Origin: a virus
DNA: 41,854 nucleotides
Strand: one strand, 5' to 3'
Virus record (IMG/VR): IMGVR_UViG_3300018077_000003
Part shown: positions 1-41,854 of the stretch, piece by piece
How positions within the stretch are numbered: the stretch's first letter is position 1
Layout of the letters: the number at the start of each line of letters is the position of its first letter
Notes under the pieces: generated by a model
Told to the model about the DNA's origin: nothing
What the model saw: only the letters and a program-made list of their open reading frames with translations
Database searches by the model: none
Made by a program: the position numbers and the translations under genes

Positions 1-123
1 GAAGCGGTGCGTGGCACACTCGGTGATACCCCTGCCGGTGGCTCACGCCAAGGGGGCCGGGGCCGCGGCTTTCGGCTTCCTGTGCGGCGCGGCGCGGGGT
101 GCCGGGTGCCCGCCGGCAGGGGC
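1..123. repeat. Terminal direct repeat, left copy (exact 123-bp identity with 41732-41854)
   Basis: Read directly: bases 1-123 (gaagcggtgcgtggcacactcgg...ccgccggcaggggc) recur base-for-base at 41732-41854. Indicates a closed circular assembly or a physical DTR. Confidence 0.95.
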
Positions 124-306
124 GTGCGGCCCACTTGCGGGGTGCGTGGGGCAAGGACCGTGGGCCCGGGCGCGCGGCAAGGGGCAGGAGGACCCGCGAC
201 GGGGGGAAGGGGCAAGCGAAGCGGGGCCCACGGGCAGGGTGCGGGGGGTCCTCCCCCTGTCTACAGTGTATTATCCCCCTTTCCGTTCTTCTTTTTTCTT
301 CTGATA

Positions 307-318
307 GTGAGCGCTCAC
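307..318. repeat. Perfect 12-bp palindrome GTGAGCGCTCAC, 7 bp upstream of the -35 of the rightward promoter (operator-like)
   Basis: Self-complementary 12-mer read in sequence. Same core as the copies at 41236, 41445, 41599 and 40915. Confidence 0.6.
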
Positions 319-325
319 CTGTAGA

Positions 326-354
326 TTGACTCCGGCTCACGCCTGTGCTATGAT
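326..354 (+). promoter_or_regulatory. Sigma70-type promoter for the rightward (terminase/structural) arm
   Basis: TTGACT (326-331), 17-bp spacer, TATGAT (349-354) with TG at -15/-14. A T-rich tract lies at 285-303 upstream. 30 of 32 positions are identical to 9899-9930. Confidence 0.65.
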
Positions 355-451
355 CCGTGCCGTGGCCGCCCCACGCACGCGCAAGATTTCCCCGCCCCCG
401 GATAAGACCAATGGCTCTCCGGATAGGCCCTTGCTGCCCGCGCTCCGGGAA

Positions 452-796
452 ATGCATGCGGTCGGCCGCGACCCGGACGGCAGGACGCTCCCGCACGATT
501 TCGATATCCAGATCGCGGCGGTCGTGGCCCAACTTGCCGCAAACGGGGCGACCCCCGATGAAATATCCCGCCTTCTGAACCTGCGCCCGGGTACGCTGCG
601 CAAACATTACCGGTACGAGCTTGAGAATGGCTGCCTGCATGCCAACATGACCGTGGCCACCAGCCTGTTCGCGGCCGCCCGGGTTCCCGGGAACATACGG
701 GCCGCCGAGATCTGGCTTAAGGCCCGGGCCGGCTGGCGGGAGACCGATGATAAGAATGCCAACCAGTCGCCGTTGAACATTCACATCCACGCATGA
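452..796 (+). CDS. HTH DNA-binding protein, small-terminase-like
   Basis: Frame of the 326..796 ORF with high GC3. HTH-like AQLAANGATPDEISRLLNLRPGTLRKHY and C-terminal EIWLKARAGWRE, which resembles the conserved end of many TerS proteins. Start is uncertain: the in-frame ATG at 350 lies inside the predicted -10, so ATG 452 (or TTG 431) is preferred. Confidence 0.5.
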   Translation: MHAVGRDPDGRTLPHDFDIQIAAVVAQLAANGATPDEISRLLNLRPGTLRKHYRYELENGCLHANMTVATSLFAAARVPGNIRAAEIWLKARAGWRETDDKNANQSPLNIHIHA

Positions 797-26154: not shown

Positions 26155-26246
26155 CGGTATTTGCTCCATAGTTCAGCTATCTTCCATGCCATGGCGACGA
26201 TCACGGCGATTATCACCATCCATGGCCCCGGTCGGTTGATTCTCAT
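26151..26246 (-). CDS. Micro-ORF, 31-aa membrane peptide
   Basis: Not in the ORF track. ATGA junctions at both ends. MRINRPGPWMVIIAVIVAMAWKIAELWSKYR. Confidence 0.35.
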   Translation of the reverse strand: MRINRPGPWMVIIAVIVAMAWKIAELWSKYR

Positions 26247-26749
26247 TCCTGTACTTCCATGGCCCGTAGCACTTCGGCCACCGGCTCGGCCCACTCTTCC
26301 CCATACTCCGCCAGCATGGCCATGACCTCATCGGCATAGAGTTGGCGCACCTTGGCAGAGTGCACCCCAACCCAGCGGTGATGAATCCAGCCAAGGGCCT
26401 CTAGCTTATCGGCCATTTTAACGAACCGGGCCAATTCGATCGACGGCTCCACGAAGAAGGCATGGTGAAACGGCATCACGGAGGGTCTGGGGAGCATGTT
26501 GGCCTTGGCCGGTGAGGGTATATCCCCGGTCCTAAACTCATCGGCATCATGGAACATGCAGTATACCAGAAGCTGAAGCGCCCCTTCCCGGTTTCCCGGA
26601 GTGCCGGCAAGACCGATAATTCGATCGTACAGCATCAGCGCAATGAGCATTACCCCATACTGGTGGTCCGCAAGGGTTTGCTCGCCGACGACTTGGATCG
26701 TGTGCCATCTGCGGACATGGCGTGATAGAAAGATCTCTTTCCAGTTCAT
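26243..26749 (-). CDS. datZ: HD-domain dNTP hydrolase, DatZ-like (dATP triphosphohydrolase candidate)
   Basis: 169 aa from the internal ATG (MNWKEIFLSRHVRRWH...). LADHQ...CMFHDADEFRTGDIPSP HD motif of the YfbR/DatZ type. ATGA coupling to the upstream gene. The longer 300-aa ORF is a frame shadow. Confidence 0.65.
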   Translation of the reverse strand: MNWKEIFLSRHVRRWHTIQVVGEQTLADHQYGVMLIALMLYDRIIGLAGTPGNREGALQLLVYCMFHDADEFRTGDIPSPAKANMLPRPSVMPFHHAFFVEPSIELARFVKMADKLEALGWIHHRWVGVHSAKVRQLYADEVMAMLAEYGEEWAEPVAEVLRAMEVQE

Positions 26750-27000
26750 CGTTCCTCCAGCGGTGTTTGATAGTCCAGGCCATACTGCTCCAGGCACGCG
26801 ACGCCTAAGGCAATTACCTGCACGATCTCGTTTAACGGGTGGCTGCGATTCACGCTCCCGTAACGGATGCCATCTTCGGCCTCGACCATTTCGCGCCGCA
26901 TGATTCTCAGCCATTCCTTGGCCGTATGCATTTGTACATACATGCCTTGGTGCGCGCGCTCGCGCACGATCTCGTTGAAAATCTCTTCTCTCGTAACCAT
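26746..27000 (-). CDS. mazZ: Small all-alpha MazG-like NTP pyrophosphohydrolase candidate (MazZ-like)
   Basis: 84 aa. REMVEAED and NEIVQVIALGVACLEQYGLD resemble the two acidic helices of MazG-type domains. GAGGAGA RBS. Sits between the purZ-like and datZ-like genes. Confidence 0.45.
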   Translation of the reverse strand: MVTREEIFNEIVRERAHQGMYVQMHTAKEWLRIMRREMVEAEDGIRYGSVNRSHPLNEIVQVIALGVACLEQYGLDYQTPLEER

Positions 27001-27002
27001 GG

Positions 27003-28022
27003 CTAAATCTCCTCAATATGATCTTCCCTCGGTCCCCAGCCCGTTCGGCCCACATGCGCGTATTTATTAATAATGGCGCACAGGCGCAAGGTTTCATTCC
27101 TGGGCACATAATTACAGAAGTTAAGGAAAACTTGATCCACCCCATTCATTCGGATCGCCTGCCTGATCTGCTCCTCAGAAAACGAGAACAGCCGCCGGGG
27201 TAGCTTGGACACGGTTGTCAGCTCCGGCTCGACGCCGATGGATGACCATTCGATCTCTTCTTGATCCCAATACCCTGGCCCGGACCAGCCTACCTGTTTG
27301 CCGTCTTTAAAGCGATTGGCCACCCGGATCGGAAGCGTGCGGGCAACGCCATAGACCATAAAATCAAAGTTGATTGGGATTGCGCAATCGCTCAGGATCT
27401 GATGCACCGAGCAGTCGCGCCATGTGCAATAAGGATAGATACCATTGTTGATGCCCAGCCCGAATCCCTGTGCGGCTTCGACCTGGATGAAATTGGCCCT
27501 ATCTATCAGGTCATTGTACTCCTCGACCGATACCACCGATCCTTCTAGCAGGGTCCGCTGCAACCGGAGCCGGGCTATGTTACCAAGATCCCCGGTTGCC
27601 CGGCGCATCTTCTCCATCAATGCCTCCCCGCCCCCTTTCATCACGCCCCCGACCCGGTAAGCGTATTGGGAAACCAGATGCCGATGCTCGTCGTCCACGA
27701 TCGCCGCATGCTCATGAATATAGAGTTCCACCCCGCCGTCGCTCAATCGGTCCAGCGCTCCCATTTCGGAGAGTAATAGATCCGGGTCAATGCATGATCC
27801 CGGCCCGAGCAGCACCCGCTTTACCGAATCGGACACGAGGCCCGACGGCAGGGCAATACTGACATATTTGTTGCCGAGGGCATCCACGAATGTGTGCCCG
27901 GCATTCGGGGCCCAGGCGGTCACGATGGTATCGGGCTTGAATTTCTTGGCCAGATACCCGGCCAGTAGCCCCTTGCCCTCTGACCCGAATTGCAGTCCCA
28001 TTATTACGCATCCAGCTTTCAT
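27003..28022 (-). CDS. purZ: Adenylosuccinate-synthetase homologue, PurZ-like (N6-succino-2-amino-2'-deoxyadenylate synthase candidate)
   Basis: 339 aa. GLQFGSEGKGLL (PurA has GDEGKG), APNAGHTF, QVEAAQGFGLGINNGIYPY, TTVSKLPRR. Shorter than cellular PurA. ATGA coupling to the polymerase gene. Confidence 0.8.
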   Translation of the reverse strand: MKAGCVIMGLQFGSEGKGLLAGYLAKKFKPDTIVTAWAPNAGHTFVDALGNKYVSIALPSGLVSDSVKRVLLGPGSCIDPDLLLSEMGALDRLSDGGVELYIHEHAAIVDDEHRHLVSQYAYRVGGVMKGGGEALMEKMRRATGDLGNIARLRLQRTLLEGSVVSVEEYNDLIDRANFIQVEAAQGFGLGINNGIYPYCTWRDCSVHQILSDCAIPINFDFMVYGVARTLPIRVANRFKDGKQVGWSGPGYWDQEEIEWSSIGVEPELTTVSKLPRRLFSFSEEQIRQAIRMNGVDQVFLNFCNYVPRNETLRLCAIINKYAHVGRTGWGPREDHIEEI

Positions 28023-29878
28023 GATAGACTCGCTCCAGCCCAATGATCAGCGATCCTGACGTCACTTAAGATGGGCACCCGGCACGAGATCGCGGCGTGG
28101 GGGCCAAAGTCCTCGAGAATATACTTAATTGCACGCGGCACATGCTTCTTACCGCGCGGCACCGAGAAATCTATCTCGTCGTGCACCGACAACAGCATGC
28201 GAAATCCTTGTTTCTTGTGGGTGGCATGAAGTTCAATCATCTTCTGCTTCATGCAATCGGCGCTGGTGCCCTGGAATACTAGGCCCCCCGCCTTATATGC
28301 ATGCGCGGGGCTGGGAAATCTGATCCGACGCCCAAGCATAGTTTTAACGTATCCCCGACCCCGCGCAATGGACGCTGCTTGGTCCAAAAGCTGCCTGATA
28401 CCAGGAATCGCGGAGTGATATTGTTCAAATTTAGCCTTGGCCTCAGGCCCCGCCACGAGCCATTCCCGTCCGGATCGGTCATGCCTGATGCTGAATTCAA
28501 GATCCATTTCCTCTGCCAGTTTGCCTTCGCCCATACCGAATACCAGGCCCAAATTAATTTGCTTCGCGTTGGCAGTGTTGCCAGCATATTTGGCGTCACG
28601 AGGAAGACCGGTGATGGCCGCAACCATCGCATGGAAATCGGTGGCCGGATCGTCACGATACTTGGCGATGAGCGCCGGGTCATTAACATAATGGGCGAAC
28701 CAACGGAATTCAAATTGTTCCCAATCTGCACAACACCAGTCTTGCCCCTCGTCCGGTACGAAACACGCACGCGTAATGAGCGCGATTTCCTTATCACGCT
28801 TCGGGATCTGTTGCAACGCCGGATCGTTGACTGAAAATCGCCCCGTACCGGTCCCCAATTCGTTATCTCCGCGTGTTTGATTGTAATTCGGATGAACGTA
28901 GCCATTTACCTCGTGTCCCAGAATGTGATCCTTGAGGAAACTGCTCGCCTTCACCAAGGTCCGCACGTCGATCACGGCCTGGGCGCGCTTATCCCCCCGG
29001 TCCGCCATCAGCTTGAGTTTGATCTTGCTGAACGACCCCTCGCCCCCCGGCGTATCGTCCAGCAGCACCCCGTTATCCGCCCACCACCTGTCATCCTCGC
29101 CCTTCTTGACGTTGAACAATTTCCGCATCTGCGGCGGGGAGTTGGCGTTAAACTCCTGCCCCACCATCGCGTTCAGCGCGCTCTGTGCTCGCTGTATTCT
29201 GTCCTTGGTCAGGGCCAGTTCACGATGGGTGCGATCCAGGTCCACCCGGACCCCGCCCCATTCAAGGTCAACCAAGACCGGAGTGAGCGCTCGCTCCACC
29301 GCCCACACCCTTTCAAGCTCCTGTTCCGCAATTTGCTTCTCCTGCCACAACCACAATTTGATAGCCAGTTGCGGGTCTTCGATTGCGTACTTACGAGCCA
29401 GCCGCTCGGGCGCGCGGTGAAGGTTCCCCATCTGGGCCTTGCGGGTCGGCTCGCCCCCGAACAGCTTGGCCAGATCACCGTATATGTCTACTTTGCCCTG
29501 GCCCACATACTTGCGGGCAAGCGCATCGAGTGAGAACGATGGCTCATGCTCATTAATCAATGCCGCCCGCACCATCGTGCATTCCATCCTATCGGCGGGG
29601 AACTCGATTCCTTTGCAACGGGCAAATAGGGCATCGAACTTGAGGTTGTGTCCCATGACCCGCCGGCATTGAGGCAGTAGCTTAATGAGCCACGGCACGA
29701 TGTTGGAATTGGTGCGGACGTCCCAGTACCCGCTCGCCCATTCCTTTGTATCTGGGTCGTGCGCAGCAACTGCAACCCCGAACAGTCTATCCTTTTTCCA
29801 GGATAGGCCCGTGGTTTCCACGTCCACCGACACTAGAGGATAGTCGGGCAGACGGGATAGATTGAGTTCCTTAATCAT
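28019..29878 (-). CDS. dpoZ: Family A DNA polymerase with 3'-5' exonuclease (DpoZ-like by context)
   Basis: Exo motifs VSVDVETTGL, HNLKFD, YAIEDPQL. Pol motif A DWEQFEFRWFAHY, motif B RDAKYAGNTANAKQINLGLVFGMG, motif C LLSVHDEI. Confidence 0.85.
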   Translation of the reverse strand: MIKELNLSRLPDYPLVSVDVETTGLSWKKDRLFGVAVAAHDPDTKEWASGYWDVRTNSNIVPWLIKLLPQCRRVMGHNLKFDALFARCKGIEFPADRMECTMVRAALINEHEPSFSLDALARKYVGQGKVDIYGDLAKLFGGEPTRKAQMGNLHRAPERLARKYAIEDPQLAIKLWLWQEKQIAEQELERVWAVERALTPVLVDLEWGGVRVDLDRTHRELALTKDRIQRAQSALNAMVGQEFNANSPPQMRKLFNVKKGEDDRWWADNGVLLDDTPGGEGSFSKIKLKLMADRGDKRAQAVIDVRTLVKASSFLKDHILGHEVNGYVHPNYNQTRGDNELGTGTGRFSVNDPALQQIPKRDKEIALITRACFVPDEGQDWCCADWEQFEFRWFAHYVNDPALIAKYRDDPATDFHAMVAAITGLPRDAKYAGNTANAKQINLGLVFGMGEGKLAEEMDLEFSIRHDRSGREWLVAGPEAKAKFEQYHSAIPGIRQLLDQAASIARGRGYVKTMLGRRIRFPSPAHAYKAGGLVFQGTSADCMKQKMIELHATHKKQGFRMLLSVHDEIDFSVPRGKKHVPRAIKYILEDFGPHAAISCRVPILSDVRIADHWAGASLS

Positions 29879-36616: not shown

Positions 36617-36650
36617 TTGTATTTTCAGCAGACCGGCGCGCGTTTATGGG

Positions 36651-36842
36651 TTACAGCACATCATTCTTTTTAGGGCCCCATGATTCTGTTACTTGAGCCA
36701 ATTCTCGATGTTCTGCAAATTCATATCGATCCCTCCCTGTGGCGCTGGCGCGGTGGAGTAAATAATCCCGCCCCCGGGCGCGCATACGACGCATCGATGC
36801 CGCCGTCTGTTCCCGCCGCTTTTTTAAATCCCGCGTGGGCAC
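36651..36842 (-). CDS. Small basic protein (63 aa)
   Basis: ORF overlaps the upstream gene by 19 nt. GC3 drops in its 3' third, so the end is uncertain. Confidence 0.35.
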   Translation of the reverse strand: MPTRDLKKRREQTAASMRRMRARGRDYLLHRASATGRDRYEFAEHRELAQVTESWGPKKNDVL

Positions 36843-37072
36843 AGGCGCTCGATGTGGGCCAGCATTGTAAACAGTTCACCGGCACTCTGTGCGGTGGCCG
36901 AGAACTCGATCTTATGCGTATCGCCACCGTACACCCGCATCCGCATCGGGAACCCGATGGCACGGGCCAGATCGATGCGGTCCGCCGACGGGCGGGCGAA
37001 TGCGAGCGAATAGGCAATGAACCCATTGGGGTCGACGGCGTGCCAAAACTTGGCAATCATCATCGCTTTCAT
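36824..37072 (-). CDS. Hypothetical protein (82 aa)
   Basis: ATGA coupling. High GC3. Confidence 0.6.
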   Translation of the reverse strand: MKAMMIAKFWHAVDPNGFIAYSLAFARPSADRIDLARAIGFPMRMRVYGGDTHKIEFSATAQSAGELFTMLAHIERLCPRGI

Positions 37073-37272
37073 GGATTGATCATCCCCAGCACGTGCTTCC
37101 TCGCCTGCTTGGCGATCTTGGTGCCGGGCGGGTTGCCGCCCTGTGGGCGGCGCTTACGGACCGGGCGCGGCCGATCGCTCGTCACCGCCATGCGGACCGG
37201 AGGGACCGGGGTCACGCGCCGGTTGCGAATGGCCCATTTGGCCCAATCATAGAACCTTCTCAGCGTGCCCAT
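37069..37272 (-). CDS. Hypothetical basic protein (67 aa)
   Basis: High GC3. Arg/Pro-rich. Confidence 0.55.
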   Translation of the reverse strand: MGTLRRFYDWAKWAIRNRRVTPVPPVRMAVTSDRPRPVRKRRPQGGNPPGTKIAKQARKHVLGMINP

Positions 37273-37296
37273 GGTCTATCCTTTTCTCTATGCCAC

Positions 37297-37563
37297 TCAG
37301 AAACTCGGCTCGTTACCCTCACTACGTACATGTCGGCGCATGACCTCTTTCAACAGATCCACGCTAAATCTTACCCCATGCACTGGCCGGGGTAGGTTAT
37401 CGTGCATTTCTCTATATACAGACAACTCACCACATGGGCATTCATATACCCAATTAAACATGAGCCGGAACCTATGGGCGGGGCTGACACCCACTTCTAC
37501 TGTGGATCCAGGCACTTCAGCCATGATACAGGCCGCCACTCGCTGCAAATGGTTCATTTTCAT
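37297..37563 (-). CDS. Hypothetical protein (88 aa)
   Basis: ATGA coupling with the upstream gene. Locally lower G+C. Confidence 0.5.
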   Translation of the reverse strand: MKMNHLQRVAACIMAEVPGSTVEVGVSPAHRFRLMFNWVYECPCGELSVYREMHDNLPRPVHGVRFSVDLLKEVMRRHVRSEGNEPSF

Positions 37564-38353
37564 TTCTTGAGTGCCCTCAAGCGGTTGCCAATAGTCATGC
37601 GCTTACGCCCCGTGTCCAGGTGCGCGTATTTCGCATCCAGTTCCGCAGCGGTGGCCTTGAGCAAGGGCGCCGCGTATTCGTACACTTGCTCGATGGTCTT
37701 GCCGCGCAGTGCCTCGGCCACTTCATCGCCGACGTCATGCCGGCCCGCCCTGGTGCGCTCGGCCCGCTCGACGTCGGCCTCGGACTTTATCTTATGGTAG
37801 CGGGTCTTGCCCAATCGCTCTTCGGGCAGCTTGGTCGCGGCCGCGACAGGCACGCTCTGGATCACGGCCTTGGGCACATGAGCATTGGTCTCATCCGGGC
37901 GGCGAGGCCTATCGCGCAGTCGCACAAAGTTGTTGCCCATGAACCCATCGACGTACCAGATCTCGCCCCGGTACGTAACGACGTCTCCGTCCGTGAAGCC
38001 GGGATAGGTCGGGCTGATGGGTAGGGTTAGTGTGACCGCCGCCCGCACCTCTGCGATCGGGATTAGTCGATCGCCTTTAACGGTAGGGTTAGCTGGACGT
38101 TCGGGCTGGTGTCGCCCGGGCCGACCGGGCCCGGCGAGTTCAAGTGCCCTTCGGGGAACGGATTGGGGATCGGGATCAGGGGCCCGAACTTTGGGTTCGG
38201 CTTGCGCAGGTCCGCAGCCTGCGGCGGGCACCGGGGCCCGGCCACTATCAACAGGTCCCCGAACACGAACATCGTCCCCATTTCCAGGCCCGGGGGCAGG
38301 CTGATCACGAACTTTGGTTCCTTCAGGCTTTGCATCTGTCGCCCCCCATTCAT
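37560..38353 (-). CDS. Two-frame gene: a 96-aa 0-frame product (38353-38063), and a ~264-aa product if a -1 shift occurs at G-TTA-AAG (38081-38075). C-terminal domain is paralogous to 39992-40432.
   Basis: GC3 is high in the 38063..38353 frame and low in the N-terminal part of the 282-aa track ORF. Downstream of about 38075 the coding signal moves to the -1 frame (GDRLIP...GDEVAEALRGKT...KYAHLDTGRKRMTIGNRLR). Confidence 0.5.
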
Positions 38354-38365
38354 CTAAAAAGTCTC

Positions 38366-38614
38366 TCATGATTGTATCCTCCGTGCGATGGCGTTTACGC
38401 GCCGGCACCAGCGTTTACCCGTCTGTGTCAACCGTCCATCCTTGCCCACGAGCTTGGGCATATTGGGCAACACGAACGGGTCCGCCAGACTTCCATCCTT
38501 CACTTTCGCTCGTGCCTTTTTGCGCGGGGTCGTGCCGTCGATGACATTATCCCGCATGGGCCGTGCGCCGAAGGACGCGCCGGCCCACTCTTCCAACAGT
38601 GACTTTTCGCCCAT
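38366..38614 (-). CDS. Hypothetical protein (82 aa)
   Basis: GAGGAG RBS 7 nt before ATG 38614. Confidence 0.55.
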   Translation of the reverse strand: MGEKSLLEEWAGASFGARPMRDNVIDGTTPRKKARAKVKDGSLADPFVLPNMPKLVGKDGRLTQTGKRWCRRVNAIARRIQS

Positions 38615-38759: not shown

Positions 38760-39119
38760 TCAGGGGACGGCTAGTATACCACGGCCCGGCCCGGCTGTCC
38801 AGTCCCCCATCAGGTGAGCGATCACCTGCTCATCGCTTTCGGCCTCCGGCTTTCCGCGCGCATGCTCCGCCCCGCACCCGCGTTCGAGCATGCACAGGTG
38901 CACGAACTCGTCAAATGGGCGGTCACTCTCGGGTCCCGCTTTCACATACGCGGACGCACCTTCATGCTCGCAATCCCACCACAGCCGCTCGCGGGGCGAC
39001 AGAATGCGGACATTGCCTTCATTCCAAGCGGCGGGCACCCGGCTCTGCACATATCCCGTGACCGAGGCCCCGGTGATCATGGCCGCGACCAAGTGCAGGA
39101 TGGTGACGATCTCGATCAT
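38760..39119 (-). CDS. Membrane-anchored protein (119 aa)
   Basis: ATGA coupling at 39119. N-terminal TM segment MIEIVTILHLVAAMITGASV. Cys/His-containing C-terminal domain. The upstream part of the 151-aa track ORF has low GC3. Confidence 0.55.
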   Translation of the reverse strand: MIEIVTILHLVAAMITGASVTGYVQSRVPAAWNEGNVRILSPRERLWWDCEHEGASAYVKAGPESDRPFDEFVHLCMLERGCGAEHARGKPEAESDEQVIAHLMGDWTAGPGRGILAVP

Positions 39120-39280
39120 TTGATCAGCACCAATAGGATCAGCGCCCATAGGATCAGCGCCCATAGGATCAGCACCAATAGGACCAGTACCAGCCCAGCT
39201 ATCGCCCCGGGCCATGACAGCGGGCGAAAATGATAAAGCTCCCTGATGCGCTTGATCTCTGACTCCTGAAAGTTATCCAT
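39116..39280 (-). CDS. Small tail-anchored membrane protein (54 aa) whose TM segment is encoded by a 15-bp tandem repeat
   Basis: MDNFQESEIKRIRELYHFRPLSWPGAIAGLVLVLLVLILWALILWALILLVLIK. Confidence 0.5.
   Translation of the reverse strand: MDNFQESEIKRIRELYHFRPLSWPGAIAGLVLVLLVLILWALILWALILLVLIK
39122..39196. repeat. 15-bp tandem repeat, 4 good copies plus 1 degenerate (GATCAGCRCCMATAG)
   Basis: Read directly. Variant order is A-B-B-A, then a diverged copy. Confidence 0.9.
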
Positions 39281-39991: not shown

Positions 39992-40432
39992 CTACTTCTC
40001 GGCTTTCTTGGTGCGGGCGGCGGCGAGCGCGCCGCGGATCTTGTTGCCCAGGTTCATGCGCTGCATGCCGACGTTCAGGTGCCCATACTTCTTCTGCAGG
40101 TCCTTCACCGTCTGGCCGGTGGCCTTGGCAGCGAGCGCATACGCCTCGTCGAGGGTGCGGCCCGCCAACTTGCCAGCAACCTCGTCGCCGCAATGCAGTG
40201 AGGAATTGCCGGCGGCGGTCTTCGCCTTGGTGTATTCCTCGATGTTGGCCGGGATCAGCCGGTCGCCATCGACAGCCTTCGGCTTGGCCTTCTTGACCGC
40301 GGGTTTGGCCTTGGGCTTCGGGGCCGCGGCCTTGGGCTTCGCGTGCACCTTCGGGCGGACCGGGGTGCCGGTGGGTACGGAGGCCGGCGCGTGACCGAGA
40401 ACCGGCGTGGGGACTGGAATTTGCTCGTTCAT
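39992..40432 (-). CDS. Histone-H1-like Lys/Ala/Pro-rich protein with a conserved C-terminal domain (paralogue of 37560-38081)
   Basis: KVHAKPKAAAPKPKAKPAVKKAKPKA, then GDRLIP, then GDEVAGKLAGRTLDEAY...KKYGHLNVGMQRMNLGNKIR. Confidence 0.65.
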   Translation of the reverse strand: MNEQIPVPTPVLGHAPASVPTGTPVRPKVHAKPKAAAPKPKAKPAVKKAKPKAVDGDRLIPANIEEYTKAKTAAGNSSLHCGDEVAGKLAGRTLDEAYALAAKATGQTVKDLQKKYGHLNVGMQRMNLGNKIRGALAAARTKKAEK

Positions 40433-40474: not shown

Positions 40475-40510
40475 GCGGATGCACCCGACTGGACCATGGG
40501 TGAGCCCATG
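40475..40510. repeat. Perfect 16-bp inverted repeat with a 4-nt loop (strong hairpin, no U tract)
   Basis: CCGACTGGACCATGGG-tgag-CCCATGGTCCAGTCGG. Intergenic, between the first and second early genes. Confidence 0.85.
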
Positions 40511-40520
40511 GTCCAGTCGG

Positions 40521-40823
40521 CTACGCCCAGCGGACCCGCCAGAAACACTCGGCCCCGTGGTCCCACATGCCCGTGGACGAAATCAGCTCGCCCAGGAGCG
40601 CCTGGCCCACGAACGGGTCCGCGCCGCCCGCACCGCCCGCACCGCCCGGGTCACCCACGGGCAGGCCCGAGAGATCGCGCGCCTCGTCGACGGCACGCTT
40701 GAGCACGTAAGTCCCGTAAACGGTACGCCTAGGCGCGTGGACCCCGCGAACGCGTTCCCAACGCTTTCGCCCGACCGATCGCTCGACTACCCACTCGCCT
40801 CGCACTTGCGCTTTCTTGCCCAT
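40521..40823 (-). CDS. First early gene, hypothetical (100 aa)
   Basis: GAGGAGA RBS before ATG 40823. High GC3. In-frame 9-bp x3 repeat encodes GAGGAGGA. Confidence 0.55.
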   Translation of the reverse strand: MGKKAQVRGEWVVERSVGRKRWERVRGVHAPRRTVYGTYVLKRAVDEARDLSGLPVGDPGGAGGAGGADPFVGQALLGELISSTGMWDHGAECFWRVRWA

Positions 40824-40881
40824 GTCCGTCTCCTCATGCCCGCAACGGGGGGCTTCCGGGGCCTGGGTTGCCCACAGACCA

Positions 40882-40910
40882 AGTAAACCACAGGCGGCGA
40901 CGCCGCACAA
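40882..40910 (-). promoter_or_regulatory. Candidate leftward early promoter
   Basis: On the - strand: TTGTGC, 17-bp spacer, TTTACT preceded by TGG. It shares CGCCTGTG just upstream of the -10 with the rightward promoters and lies next to the palindrome at 40915. Confidence 0.4.
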
Positions 40911-40914
40911 GTAG

Positions 40915-40926
40915 GTCAGCGCTCAC
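40915..40926. repeat. Palindrome-family copy GTCAGCGCTCAC (1 mismatch)
   Basis: Read directly. Part of GTCAG-CGCTCA-CTGAC. Confidence 0.5.
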
Positions 40927-41235
40927 TGACCGGGCCGTCACCGACAGAACCCACGCCCCCGGGCGGGCACAAGCAGGGCCGCGAGCGGCAGCCCCCGCCG
41001 GGGGGGCCTCAGCCCGGCCGACCCCCCAGCGCCCAAGCGACGCGGGCCAAGGGGCGCCAGCAGCGGCACGGGAACAAGCGGACGGACAGGGACAGGAGCA
41101 GGCAGGCGAGGCGGAAACGCACGGGGCACCCCCAGCGCCCCCAGCCGGGGGGCAGGCGGGCCGGGCCCAGGGAGGGCGGGACCGGCACCCGGAGGGTAAG
41201 CAGGGGCCGTGCCAGGCCGGGGTCGGCTCCGTCGG

Positions 41236-41247
41236 GTGAGCGCTCAC
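41236..41247. repeat. Perfect palindrome GTGAGCGCTCAC
   Basis: Read directly. Confidence 0.6.
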
Positions 41248-41444
41248 TTGCGGGCGGCGCGGGGCTTTGCCCGGCGGGCGGGGGAAGGCGCACCCGGGTG
41301 ACGGAGCAAGGGGGGCCCGGCACGACCCTTGCTTGGGGTGACGCGGGGCGTCATGTTGCGGTGCACCAGTGACGCGGGACGGCACCTAAAGCAAAGGCCG
41401 TGCCGGGGTCGGGGGTGGCTCACCCCAGGGGCCGGCGGCGGTTA

Positions 41445-41470
41445 GTGAGCGCTCATCCTGTCACGCACCG
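41445..41470. repeat. Left arm of a 26-bp inverted repeat (GTGAGCGCTCATCCTGTCACGCACCG)
   Basis: The reverse complement recurs at 41585-41610 with 1 mismatch. Confidence 0.8.
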
Positions 41471-41584
41471 CGAAAGACGCTCGGAGCCGGTGCAGCCGGT
41501 GCGTACGTAGGGCCAGGGGGGGTGCCGGGAAGGGGTCTCGGGGGGTGCAGAAGGACCGGACGCACCGGTCTGGGCCCCGCGGGA

Positions 41585-41610
41585 CGGTGCATGACAGGAT
41601 GAGCGCTCAC
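41585..41610. repeat. Right arm of the 26-bp inverted repeat (CGGTGCATGACAGGATGAGCGCTCAC)
   Basis: See 41445-41470. Confidence 0.8.
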
Positions 41611-41731
41611 TACCGCCGAGGAGGGCGACGGGGGCCGAGGGACGCCGGGGAGGGAGACACGCCCCGGGGGGGACAGACCGGGAGAACCGGCCTCACGCGC
41701 GCGTACGCTGGGGTGTGCACGCCTAACGCGA

Positions 41732-41854
41732 GAAGCGGTGCGTGGCACACTCGGTGATACCCCTGCCGGTGGCTCACGCCAAGGGGGCCGGGGCCGCGGC
41801 TTTCGGCTTCCTGTGCGGCGCGGCGCGGGGTGCCGGGTGCCCGCCGGCAGGGGC
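41732..41854. repeat. Terminal direct repeat, right copy
   Basis: Identical to 1-123. Confidence 0.95.

Follow-up and report, generated by a model that had tools for sequence, protein, structure and literature searches.

Phages commonly have intergenic control regions that combine divergent promoters with operators. Among described phages, the layout considered here is readily compared with that of ZP6, a cultured Alteromonas phage of the genus Mareflavirus that has a Z-genome, in which 2-aminoadenine stands for adenine. We analyzed a viral DNA stretch of 41,854 nt (IMG/VR record IMGVR_UViG_3300018077_000003; hereafter the window), in which the first 123 nt of a 41,731-nt unit recur without change after its end (1–123 = 41732–41854), and in particular the G + C (GC)-rich, gene-free spacer that separates its early arm (minus strand) from its late arm (plus strand). 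We consider it likely that this tract, which is free of genes, controls transcription of the two divergent arms in a ZP6-like podophage that assembles as a circle and encodes PurZ, DatZ, and DpoZ. Its conserved islands comprise three sigma-54-type −24/−12 promoters, five 12- to 14-bp dyad operators, and one G-rich box (G-box) with GGGWCCC repeats, and two of the five operators abut sigma-70-type promoters, namely P_L of the early arm and P_R of the late arm, which begins with terS. What appears to be new is a clade-wide cluster of predicted sigma-54 promoters directly before the first early genes of a lytic-looking phage in which no activator was found.

ZP6 resembles the window in both arms, having terS, terL, portal, capsid, and tail genes in the plus arm and dATPase, PurZ, primase, PolA, and SNF2 helicase genes in the minus arm. 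It also has two phrog_8941-type paralogues and GC-rich non-coding DNA between the arms, and CGCGGGTCCCC motifs, a CT-rich stretch, a TTGAC-N17-TGTGCTATAAT element, and terS follow one another in the same order. The two phages differ in several respects. The TerL of ZP6 is too diverged to appear among the tblastn matches, and its inter-arm gaps are shorter (487 nt plus approximately 480 nt across the record ends). It has no sigma-54 sites, and no GTGAGCGCTCAC palindrome was seen in the stretches of ZP6 that were read, ZP6 not having been scanned for it. Furthermore, its inter-arm GC content lies 14 points above its own GC content at four-fold degenerate sites (GC4), whereas that of the window equals its own GC4. 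By text search, the published description of ZP6 does not discuss the inter-arm region. BcepC6B, the cultured phage with the closest TerL (40% identity), was rejected as a model because it has no spacer, G-box, or sigma-54 sites, and literature on the termini of BcepC6B and BPP-1 was uninformative.

With regard to the promoters, Ceyssens et al. reportedly dealt with the sigma-54-dependent phage promoters of Pseudomonas phage YuA in 2008, and Callen, Shearwin, and Egan are said to have described the face-to-face promoter switches of coliphages 186 and P2 in 2004. The window shares with 186 and P2 two promoters that would fire toward each other over a short distance at the boundary of alternative gene sets. 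However, the promoters of these temperate phages are of the sigma-70 type and are controlled by CI and Apl, whereas the pair in the window is predicted to be of the sigma-54 type, with interference as an inferred mechanism. No integrase or repressor was found among the scanned proteins, which covered the late arm up to 6890. YuA is a lytic phage with both sigma-54 and sigma-70 promoters, both of which are used by way of the host sigma factors (Putzeys et al., 2024; PMC10914365), and in this it resembles what is predicted here. However, YuA is an unrelated siphovirus, and the clade of the window differs from it in having several predicted sigma-54 sites in one spacer, a facing pair among them, conservation of the sites across the clade, and predicted sites for the first early genes.

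Extent and composition of the inter-arm spacer

We compared eight genomes, that is, the window and seven relatives with complete spacers (L003, L008, L011, L020, L032, L033, and L035). From the first ATG of the early arm (40823, minus strand) to the conserved TerS domain (452), 1,359 nt are gene-free (40824–41854 plus 124–451), which amounts to approximately 3% of the 41,731-nt unit and is unusually long for a phage, as had been claimed in a prediction made from the letters of the window (hereafter the original prediction). GC content is 69–85% in 100-nt windows from approximately 40900 to approximately 265 of the next unit, against 59.2% genome-wide, and reaches 76.5% over 40930–41854. The Rfam scan of the spacer returned nothing at the gathering threshold and only one chance match at E ≤ 1, and a search for transfer RNA and transfer-messenger RNA genes found none; nor was nucleotide similarity to known phages found.

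Open reading frames (ORFs) of up to 183 aa do run through all six frames of the tract, as they might if it encoded a low-complexity Arg/Pro/Gly/Ala-rich protein. However, these frames arise only from the rarity of T or A. Codon-position GC is flat in the spacer ORFs (approximately 0.75 at all three positions), whereas real genes show approximately 0.61/0.46/0.69, with second-position values of 0.45–0.57. The ten longest spacer ORFs gave zero Pfam or PHROG matches (E ≤ 0.1), ribosome-binding sites (RBSs) are absent, and no ATG occurs within the T-free part of the tract. In addition, no spacer ORF is conserved in the relatives, and the source pipelines of four independent assemblies (L026–L029) called no gene in the spacer. 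A protein-coding role is therefore very improbable. The tract is non-coding and reproducible, in line with the original prediction, and the same feature is kept across the clade: in the seven relatives, gene-free gaps of 631–1,737 nt lie at the same place between the early arm and terS. Between relatives, the spacer can be aligned solely in motif islands, and its sequence mostly turns over quickly around these islands of conserved motifs.

The original prediction also implied that the GC content of the tract is odd, which does not hold within this genome. Four-fold degenerate sites are 74–75% GC (n = 6,440), matching the spacer, and the spacers of relatives (0.68–0.69) lie at or below the GC4 of their own TerL genes (0.68–0.84). 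In this clade, therefore, the GC-richness of the spacer is due mostly to the absence of coding constraint. G-quadruplex motifs are enriched in the spacer of the window, yet the relatives do not conserve them, and a G-quadruplex function was rejected.

The match between spacer GC and GC4, together with the fast turnover between relatives, would also suit a tract of which most of the 1.3 kb is functionless filler drifting at mutational equilibrium, with function confined to the short motif islands. Relatives have early genes located between the operator block and the sigma-54 promoter, and loss of these genes could have left such filler behind; where the window has a tract nearly free of A, L011 carries three genes, and the indel and single-nucleotide polymorphism (SNP) variation of the population is located in the spacer. 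However, despite the packaging-size pressure on phages, gaps of 0.6–1.7 kb persist in all eight genomes, and no pseudogene remnant was detectable. A stretch with 1.1% T, against 14–15% at four-fold sites, is not the product of neutral drift, and the inter-arm DNA of ZP6 exceeds its GC4 by the margin given above. We thus hold filler to be rather unlikely as an account of most of the tract.

Assembly of the spacer

The window begins and ends with the same 123 nt, which the original prediction took as a terminal repeat and compared with the concatemer junctions of T7. Four independent assemblies (L026–L029; JGI, ENA, and Logan; samples 3300018079, 3300018074, ERZ27267903, and SRR7007152) cross 38000 → 41731 → 1 → 4000 at 99.9–100% identity, and in all four the 123-nt segment is single-copy and lies mid-contig. 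Because the segment is present once in independent contigs, the terminal repeat and the T7 analogy fall away; the repeat is an assembler overlap on a circular contig. The likeness to T7-type terminal repeats goes no further than a short stretch that recurs exactly at the two ends of the window, which in addition has no tandem arrays, no phage RNA polymerase, and another gene order. One of the four contigs (L026, JGI) has the same length as the window, 41,731 + 123 = 41,854 nt, but its breakpoint lies elsewhere, and the length of a MEGAHIT "k141" contig, 41,877 nt, is the sum of 41,731 nt, an insertion of 5 nt (GCGGC) at 84, and an overlap of 141 nt. Just past the repeat, at position 124, the window has G and all four assemblies have T, and a SNP bubble in a k = 123 graph would open the circle at precisely this base. 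The value of 123 is presumably the largest MEGAHIT k-mer used by JGI. The protein of 39992–40432 is found with identical sequence on 17 contigs.

The window ends inside the segment, and many contigs of relatives break in or near their own spacers, which may raise the suspicion of an assembly chimera or artifact, the case that the original prediction had named against itself. However, the four assemblies that read through the segment come from different samples and assemblers and are nearly identical, and the artifact is limited to the 123-nt duplication. We give this explanation almost no weight: the spacer is genuine, and assembly of the genome yields a circle. The structured-RNA reading considered below is likewise unlikely, as are the protein-coding and artifact readings.

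The 5-nt GCGGC slippage indel at 84 means that the spacer is polymorphic in the population. Contigs that end inside a spacer or at its edge, at varying positions, are L001, L002, L004–L006, L009, L017, L021–L025, and L030, which suggests that the fast-evolving, GC-rich spacer breaks metagenome assemblies. More generally, a "direct terminal repeat" in a metagenomic contig can be a k-mer overlap placed by a SNP, and GC-rich spacers of this sort are spots where assemblies tend to break.

Predicted sigma-54-type promoters

Exact GGCACG-N5-TGCW sites occur three times in the window, within 210 nt of each other, at 41215 (minus), 41317 (plus), and 41406 (minus), and nowhere else in it; 0.28 would be expected per genome shuffle and 0.0125 per spacer shuffle. 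The three sites, termed a, b, and c (Table 1), fit the consensus YTGGCACGrNNNTTGCW with GG and GC exactly 10 nt apart. Across the eight genomes, the strict form YGGCACG-N4-YTGCH has 16 sites in 8.8 kb of spacer and none in the 120.8 kb outside, and a further six phage genomes totaling 252 kb (BcepC6B, with 65% GC, and five PurZ phages) likewise have none. The −24 and −12 elements are invariant, and variation between sites is confined to the N positions. The order minus/plus/minus is common to the window, L011, and L032 and includes a facing pair approximately 87 nt apart, between which lies a core block with 80% identity to L011 over 86 nt that is also found in a three-genome alignment. In five relatives (L011, L003, L020, L032, and L033), the distance between the leftmost leftward site and the first early start codon, which is furnished with a good RBS, is 66 or 78 nt.

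Should these promoters prove real, infection would be gated by an enhancer-binding protein of the host and hence by host physiology. None of the five cultured PurZ phages has such sites, and we therefore rejected the notion that they are a general trait of PurZ phages. The compensatory changes that an inverted repeat (I1) had seemed to show between the window and L011 were reinterpreted, as both of its arms turned out to be sigma-54 −24 elements. TGTTCCG/CGGAACA motifs repeat 25–160 nt upstream of some sigma-54 sites (L011 2880–3080; L003 7990–8060 and 7700–7760) and are candidate activator sites; they are absent at the equivalent place in the window.

Operator palindromes, sigma-70-type promoters, and a candidate binder

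With up to two mismatches, the palindrome GTGAGCGCTCAC has seven matches against 1.9 expected, a number reached by none of 100 shuffles, and five of the seven lie in the spacer (40915, 41236, 41445, 41599, and 307). It is also found in L001, L002/L020, L003, L008, L011, L017, and L025. The copy at 40915–40926 (GTCAGCGCTCAC) is directly upstream of P_L, and the P_L block is conserved in L011 (1208–1252, 82%) and L008 (7955–7998). At the late promoter, relatives and ZP6 share an extended −10 element of the TGTGCTATAAT type. The original prediction had recognized both the T-rich stretch and the promoter following it, which is near consensus (TTGACT-17-TATGAT, 326–354), and these are present, as are the palindromes, inverted repeats, and T-free runs that it listed. 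Strong sigma-70 promoters are abutted by the palindrome at 307 and 38814, and other copies flank sigma-54 sites.

Two general rules for the palindrome were considered and rejected. By strict scan only two or three copies abut sigma-70 promoters, so that this is not true of all of them. A role as sigma-54 enhancer sites does not fit either, because sigma-54 sites of L011 and L003 have no palindromes nearby and L008 has palindromes without sigma-54 sites. The 12-bp core GTGAGCGCTCAC at 307–318 and 41236–41247 is also that of the artificial symmetric lac operator (AATTGTGAGCGCTCACAATT), which may be a coincidence; no LacI-like protein was found in the phage.

Further copies lie outside the spacer. 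A one-mismatch palindrome, GTGAGCGATCAC (38814–38825), is directly upstream of a strong leftward sigma-70 promoter, TGGACA-17-TATACT with TG (38795–38825, minus strand), which sits within the 3′ end of the ORF 38760–39215 and is probably, judging from its arrangement, an internal early-arm promoter under the same operator control. Another one-mismatch copy, GTGAGCGCTCGC at 29283–29294, lies within the polymerase gene, and no promoter was found beside it.

As for the protein that might bind these sites, of all proteins encoded from the primase to the spacer, only the two phrog_8941 paralogues (39992–40432 and 37560–38408) are conserved in the relatives, and no helix-turn-helix Pfam match was obtained in the early arm. 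We regard the phrog_8941-domain protein as the best phage-encoded candidate. Its AlphaFold model is confident, with a predicted local distance difference test score (pLDDT) of 80 overall and 86–97 across the C-terminal residues 61–146, and its structural relatives are only uncharacterized phage proteins, two of them from ZP6. An assignment of function from structure was given up, since the model has no neighbor among solved structures. Proteins of this type have a Lys/Ala/Pro-rich N-terminus and a conserved C-terminal domain with the invariant LNxGxQRMxLGNxxR; there are two paralogues per genome in the window, L003, L008, L011, and ZP6, and the 178 homologues are mostly on contigs of approximately 40 kb.

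Table 1. Features of the window and of the spacer between its early and late arms
Feature	Coordinates	Strand	Description
Gene-free inter-arm spacer, left (main) part	40824..41854	.	Continues at 124 of the circular unit; 41732–41854 duplicates 1–123
Spacer, right part up to the conserved TerS domain	1..451	.	Positions 1–123 recur at 41732–41854
Sigma-54-type promoter a (predicted)	41199..41215	−	CTGGCACGGCCCCTGCT; leftward, to the early arm; homologous sites in relatives
Sigma-54-type promoter b (predicted)	41317..41333	+	CCGGCACGACCCTTGCT; rightward, to the G-box and terS; aligns with L011 and L032 sites
Sigma-54-type promoter c (predicted)	41390..41406	−	CCGGCACGGCCTTTGCT; leftward, facing b
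Conserved core between facing b and c	41338..41384	.	TGACG-N5-CGTCA inverted repeat (D7) and a second direct copy
Operator palindrome	41236..41247	.	GTGAGCGCTCAC; flanked by sigma-54 promoters a and b, which diverge
Inverted repeat I2, two 28-nt arms	41443–41470 and 41585–41612	.	96% complementary; palindromes at 41445–41456 and 41599–41610
Early-arm promoter P_L (predicted)	40882..40926	−	−35 TTGTGC 40910–40905, 17-nt spacer, TG, −10 TTTACT 40887–40882
Operator (307–318) and late-arm sigma-70 promoter P_R (predicted)	307..354	+	TTGACT 326–331, 17-nt spacer, TG, TATGAT 349–354
Pyrimidine-/T-rich stretch	275..303	+	Between the G-box and the late promoter; CT-rich counterparts in relatives and ZP6
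G-box region	190..257	+	GGACCCGCG 190–198, G-run 201–206, core GGGCAAGCGAAGCGGGGCC 210–228, GGGGGGTCCTCCCCC 243–257
Terminase small subunit (conserved domain), first late-arm gene	452..796	+	phrog_309, E = 1.5e-8; homologues in all relatives
Leader almost free of A (T-free on the plus strand)	40939..41196	−	From the predicted start of promoter a (~41188) to the P_L block
Assembly overlap, k = 123	41732..41854	.	Duplicates 1–123; not a physical terminal repeat
First early-arm ORF, 100 aa, lineage-specific	40521..40823	−	Coding-type GC at codon positions 1/2/3 of 0.74/0.57/0.78
PurZ	27003–28043	−	Best solved relative S-2L PurZ (7odx), 2e-70, versus ≤1e-12 to 7e-24 for PurA
DatZ-like HD protein	26243–27145	−	6zpa, 3e-6
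DpoZ-like PolA	28019–29878	−	7pbk, 4e-123, versus 1e-38 for Klenow

The G-box upstream of terS

Terminase recognition sites lie next to or inside terS in well-known phages, as with lambda cosB and Nu1 and with the pac sites of P22, SPP1, and P1. The G-box (consensus GGGGGGWGGGGGCCAAAGCGNGCGGGTCCC) resembles these sites in being single-copy, fixed in orientation, highly conserved, furnished with repeated half-sites, and placed immediately upstream of terS, but its sequence resembles no known cos or pac site. It is found once, on the plus strand, 110–310 nt upstream of the TerS domain in 17 of 18 loci of the clade, L032 being off-pattern, and in L008, L003, and L011 it possibly lies within the 5′ end of the terS frame. 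Its flanks consist of GGGWCCC near-palindrome copies that vary in number and orientation. RNAalifold yielded an invariant hairpin only, with a covariation term of +0.4 and no covariation. Because the G-box is fixed and shows no covariation while its flanks vary in number and orientation, it behaves as a protein-binding site. An RNA hairpin formed by the flanks (GGACCCGCG/CGCGGGTCC) was rejected, because the arms, themselves GGGWCCC copies, form direct repeats in L001 and are missing from L003, L009, and L024, and co-variation between them was never seen. For ZP6, the authors used PhageTerm to define the ends of the record, and CGCGGGTCCCC motifs, which are related to the G-box, lie on either side of these ends, with one such motif approximately 20 nt away. 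The G-box is probably a terminase or packaging recognition site, and TerS is the natural candidate for its binder.

Beyond the G-box, terS of L004, L005, and L009 has an ATG 6 nt past the −10 of the late promoter, in frame, and the window has a GTG at 362 in the equivalent place; the arrangement in these three relatives implies a putatively leaderless terS mRNA.

The same part of the spacer could instead act as a long structured non-coding RNA or leader, for example one running from promoter b through the G-box, whose function lies in its fold (processing, antitermination, or decoy). The plus strand of 41344–41854 indeed folds better than shuffled sequences (z = −4.68; 0 of 100 shuffles as stable), and a rightward sigma-54 promoter is predicted upstream of the tract in the window, L011, L003, and L032. 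However, the stability comes from operator-bearing inverted repeats, mostly I2, which are equally explained as DNA sites, and the covariance-model scan proposed in the original prediction gave no Rfam family, even at E ≤ 1. Relatives are unalignable outside the motif islands, and the 6-bp hairpin of the G-box is invariant, without covariation and with a loop as conserved as its stem. Moreover, in some genomes the G-box precedes the proximal promoter and in others it follows a promoter, and the leftward leader described in the next section does not fold better than chance. On these grounds we find a structured RNA, which had been among the roles offered originally, improbable.

A leader nearly free of A

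On the plus strand, the stretch between 40928 and 41209 holds just three T's (40938, 41009, and 41197). Its longest run without T spans 187 nt, compared with a mean longest run of 60 and a maximum of 121 in 200 random trials at spacer composition, and the T content of 40930–41200 is 1.1%, against 14–15% at four-fold sites. In the sense of a transcript from promoter a, the approximately 250 nt downstream of the site thus contain two A's (41009 and 40938), and because A is nearly absent, the leader RNA would have no AUG, stop codon, or GGAGG. Its predicted fold is no more stable than that of shuffled sequences (z = +0.79). The tract extends as far as the P_L operator block, and in its place relatives carry a gene. 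The boundaries of the tract fall on promoter elements, which speaks for a leader defined by transcription. No comparable T-free tract was found in relatives.

The origin of the A-free leader may be either selection, for a translation-inert leader, or strand-specific mutation on the non-template strand, for which deamination of Z to G is one, speculative, candidate. Descent from the early genes of relatives by decay was rejected, since tblastn gave no credible signal, with matches of low complexity or to mis-framed queries only.

Proposed control mechanism and a possible replication origin

Of the four roles offered for the tract in the original prediction, a regulatory hub for both arms fits the evidence best. 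As we picture it, host RNA polymerase with sigma-54 and a host enhancer-binding ATPase would fire the early arm from promoters a and c, and promoter b would send a long rightward leader. The facing pair b and c may serve as an early/late switch through transcriptional interference. A dimeric protein would bind the palindromes and modulate both promoter classes, and TerS would recognize the G-box and so start packaging.

Several observations weigh against this control-region interpretation. Promoter a lies 391 nt from the first ATG, not 66–78 nt as in relatives, and sigma-54 sites are lacking in ZP6 and in L008 and L035, although the spacers of the latter two are complete. Facing promoters are an odd layout, and every promoter named here is a sequence prediction; P_L in particular has weakly matching hexamers and was not called by the consensus scan. 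No GAFTGA-like motif was found in the six frames of the phage, and no Sigma54_activat match was obtained among 30 early-arm and small late-arm proteins, the large structural ORFs having been checked by the GAFTGA motif only. The phrog_8941 model has no neighbor among solved structures (best E = 1.2) and hence none that binds DNA, and the packaging role of the G-box rests on its position and on one statement in the ZP6 literature. Nor does a control region account for the A-free leader. Furthermore, the inter-arm non-coding DNA of ZP6 (L039 37091–37577 and 37824–38080) is 64.5–65.4% GC against a GC4 of 50.9%. In view of this 14-point excess, absent constraint cannot fully account for the composition, and it is likely that a GC-enriching force or function acts in this kind of region.

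Compatible with a control region, the spacer could also be or contain a replication origin, with sites for an initiator or the primase, maybe primed by sigma-54 transcription and bidirectional where the arms diverge; the purine-rich, T-free tract would then either stabilize an R-loop or mark where the leading strand begins. The sign of GC skew switches at approximately 40950–41000 and the cumulative skew peaks at approximately 25,500, where the arms converge; the spacer is dense in direct and inverted repeats, the tract is strongly asymmetric between strands, and the adjacent arm encodes an archaeo-eukaryotic primase (AEP) and helicases. However, the skew switch coincides with the switch in gene orientation, and replication therefore cannot be separated from transcription as its source. 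The repeats kept across relatives are the motifs of promoters and operators, only the window has the T-free tract, there is no AT-rich unwinding element except for the short T-rich 275–303, and no candidate initiator protein was found. An origin is thus a possibility that we rate as somewhat unlikely.

Genome context and the predicted Z-genome

The plus arm opens with TerS (phrog_309) and TerL, and the minus arm encodes the AEP primase, an SNF2 helicase, a UvrD helicase, and PolA. PurZ, which is 39–44% identical to PurZ of known Z phages, and the DatZ-like and DpoZ-like proteins are encoded in a cluster at 26243–29878 (minus strand), and the structure most similar to the last, 7pbk, is DpoZ of phage phiVC8. 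Because PurZ is encoded together with DatZ-like and DpoZ-like proteins, we infer a Z-genome, in which the phage probably replaces adenine with 2-aminoadenine. A search of 185,579 bacterial and archaeal genomes yielded no relatives and hence no clue to a host or a prophage state. From the sequence, the most interesting aspects of the locus are the predicted clade-wide sigma-54-type early promoters without a phage-encoded activator in what is probably a Z-genome phage.

One might go further and suppose an adaptation of the cis-regulatory DNA of the clade to a genome that contains 2-aminoadenine. Z:T pairs are held by three hydrogen bonds, and sigma-70 −10 elements may be harder to recognize and melt on account of the additional amino group; G/C-based signals and sigma-54 promoters, which are opened by ATP hydrolysis, would then launch the early genes. 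The GC-rich inter-arm DNA, which in ZP6 is above synonymous-site GC, and the Z-poor non-template leader strand would be signatures of such adaptation or of Z-to-G deamination on exposed single strands. We consider this adaptation a long shot. To our knowledge, how host RNA polymerase reads 2-aminoadenine promoters is largely unexplored, and the spacer offers predicted sigma-70 and sigma-54 promoters side by side that could be used for tests on Z-substituted templates.

Two further places in the early arm deserve mention. The 943 nt of 36617–37559, downstream of the primase gene, contain only small ORFs (82, 67, and 88 aa in the pipelines), with no family match or homologue in relatives; the first early-arm ORF (Table 1) likewise had no family match and no homologue in relatives. 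Between the first two early genes, 40485–40520 is a perfect 16-bp inverted repeat with a 4-nt loop (CCGACTGGACCATGGG/CCCATGGTCCAGTCGG), which is not followed by a U-tract and could function in attenuation, in processing, or as a protein site.

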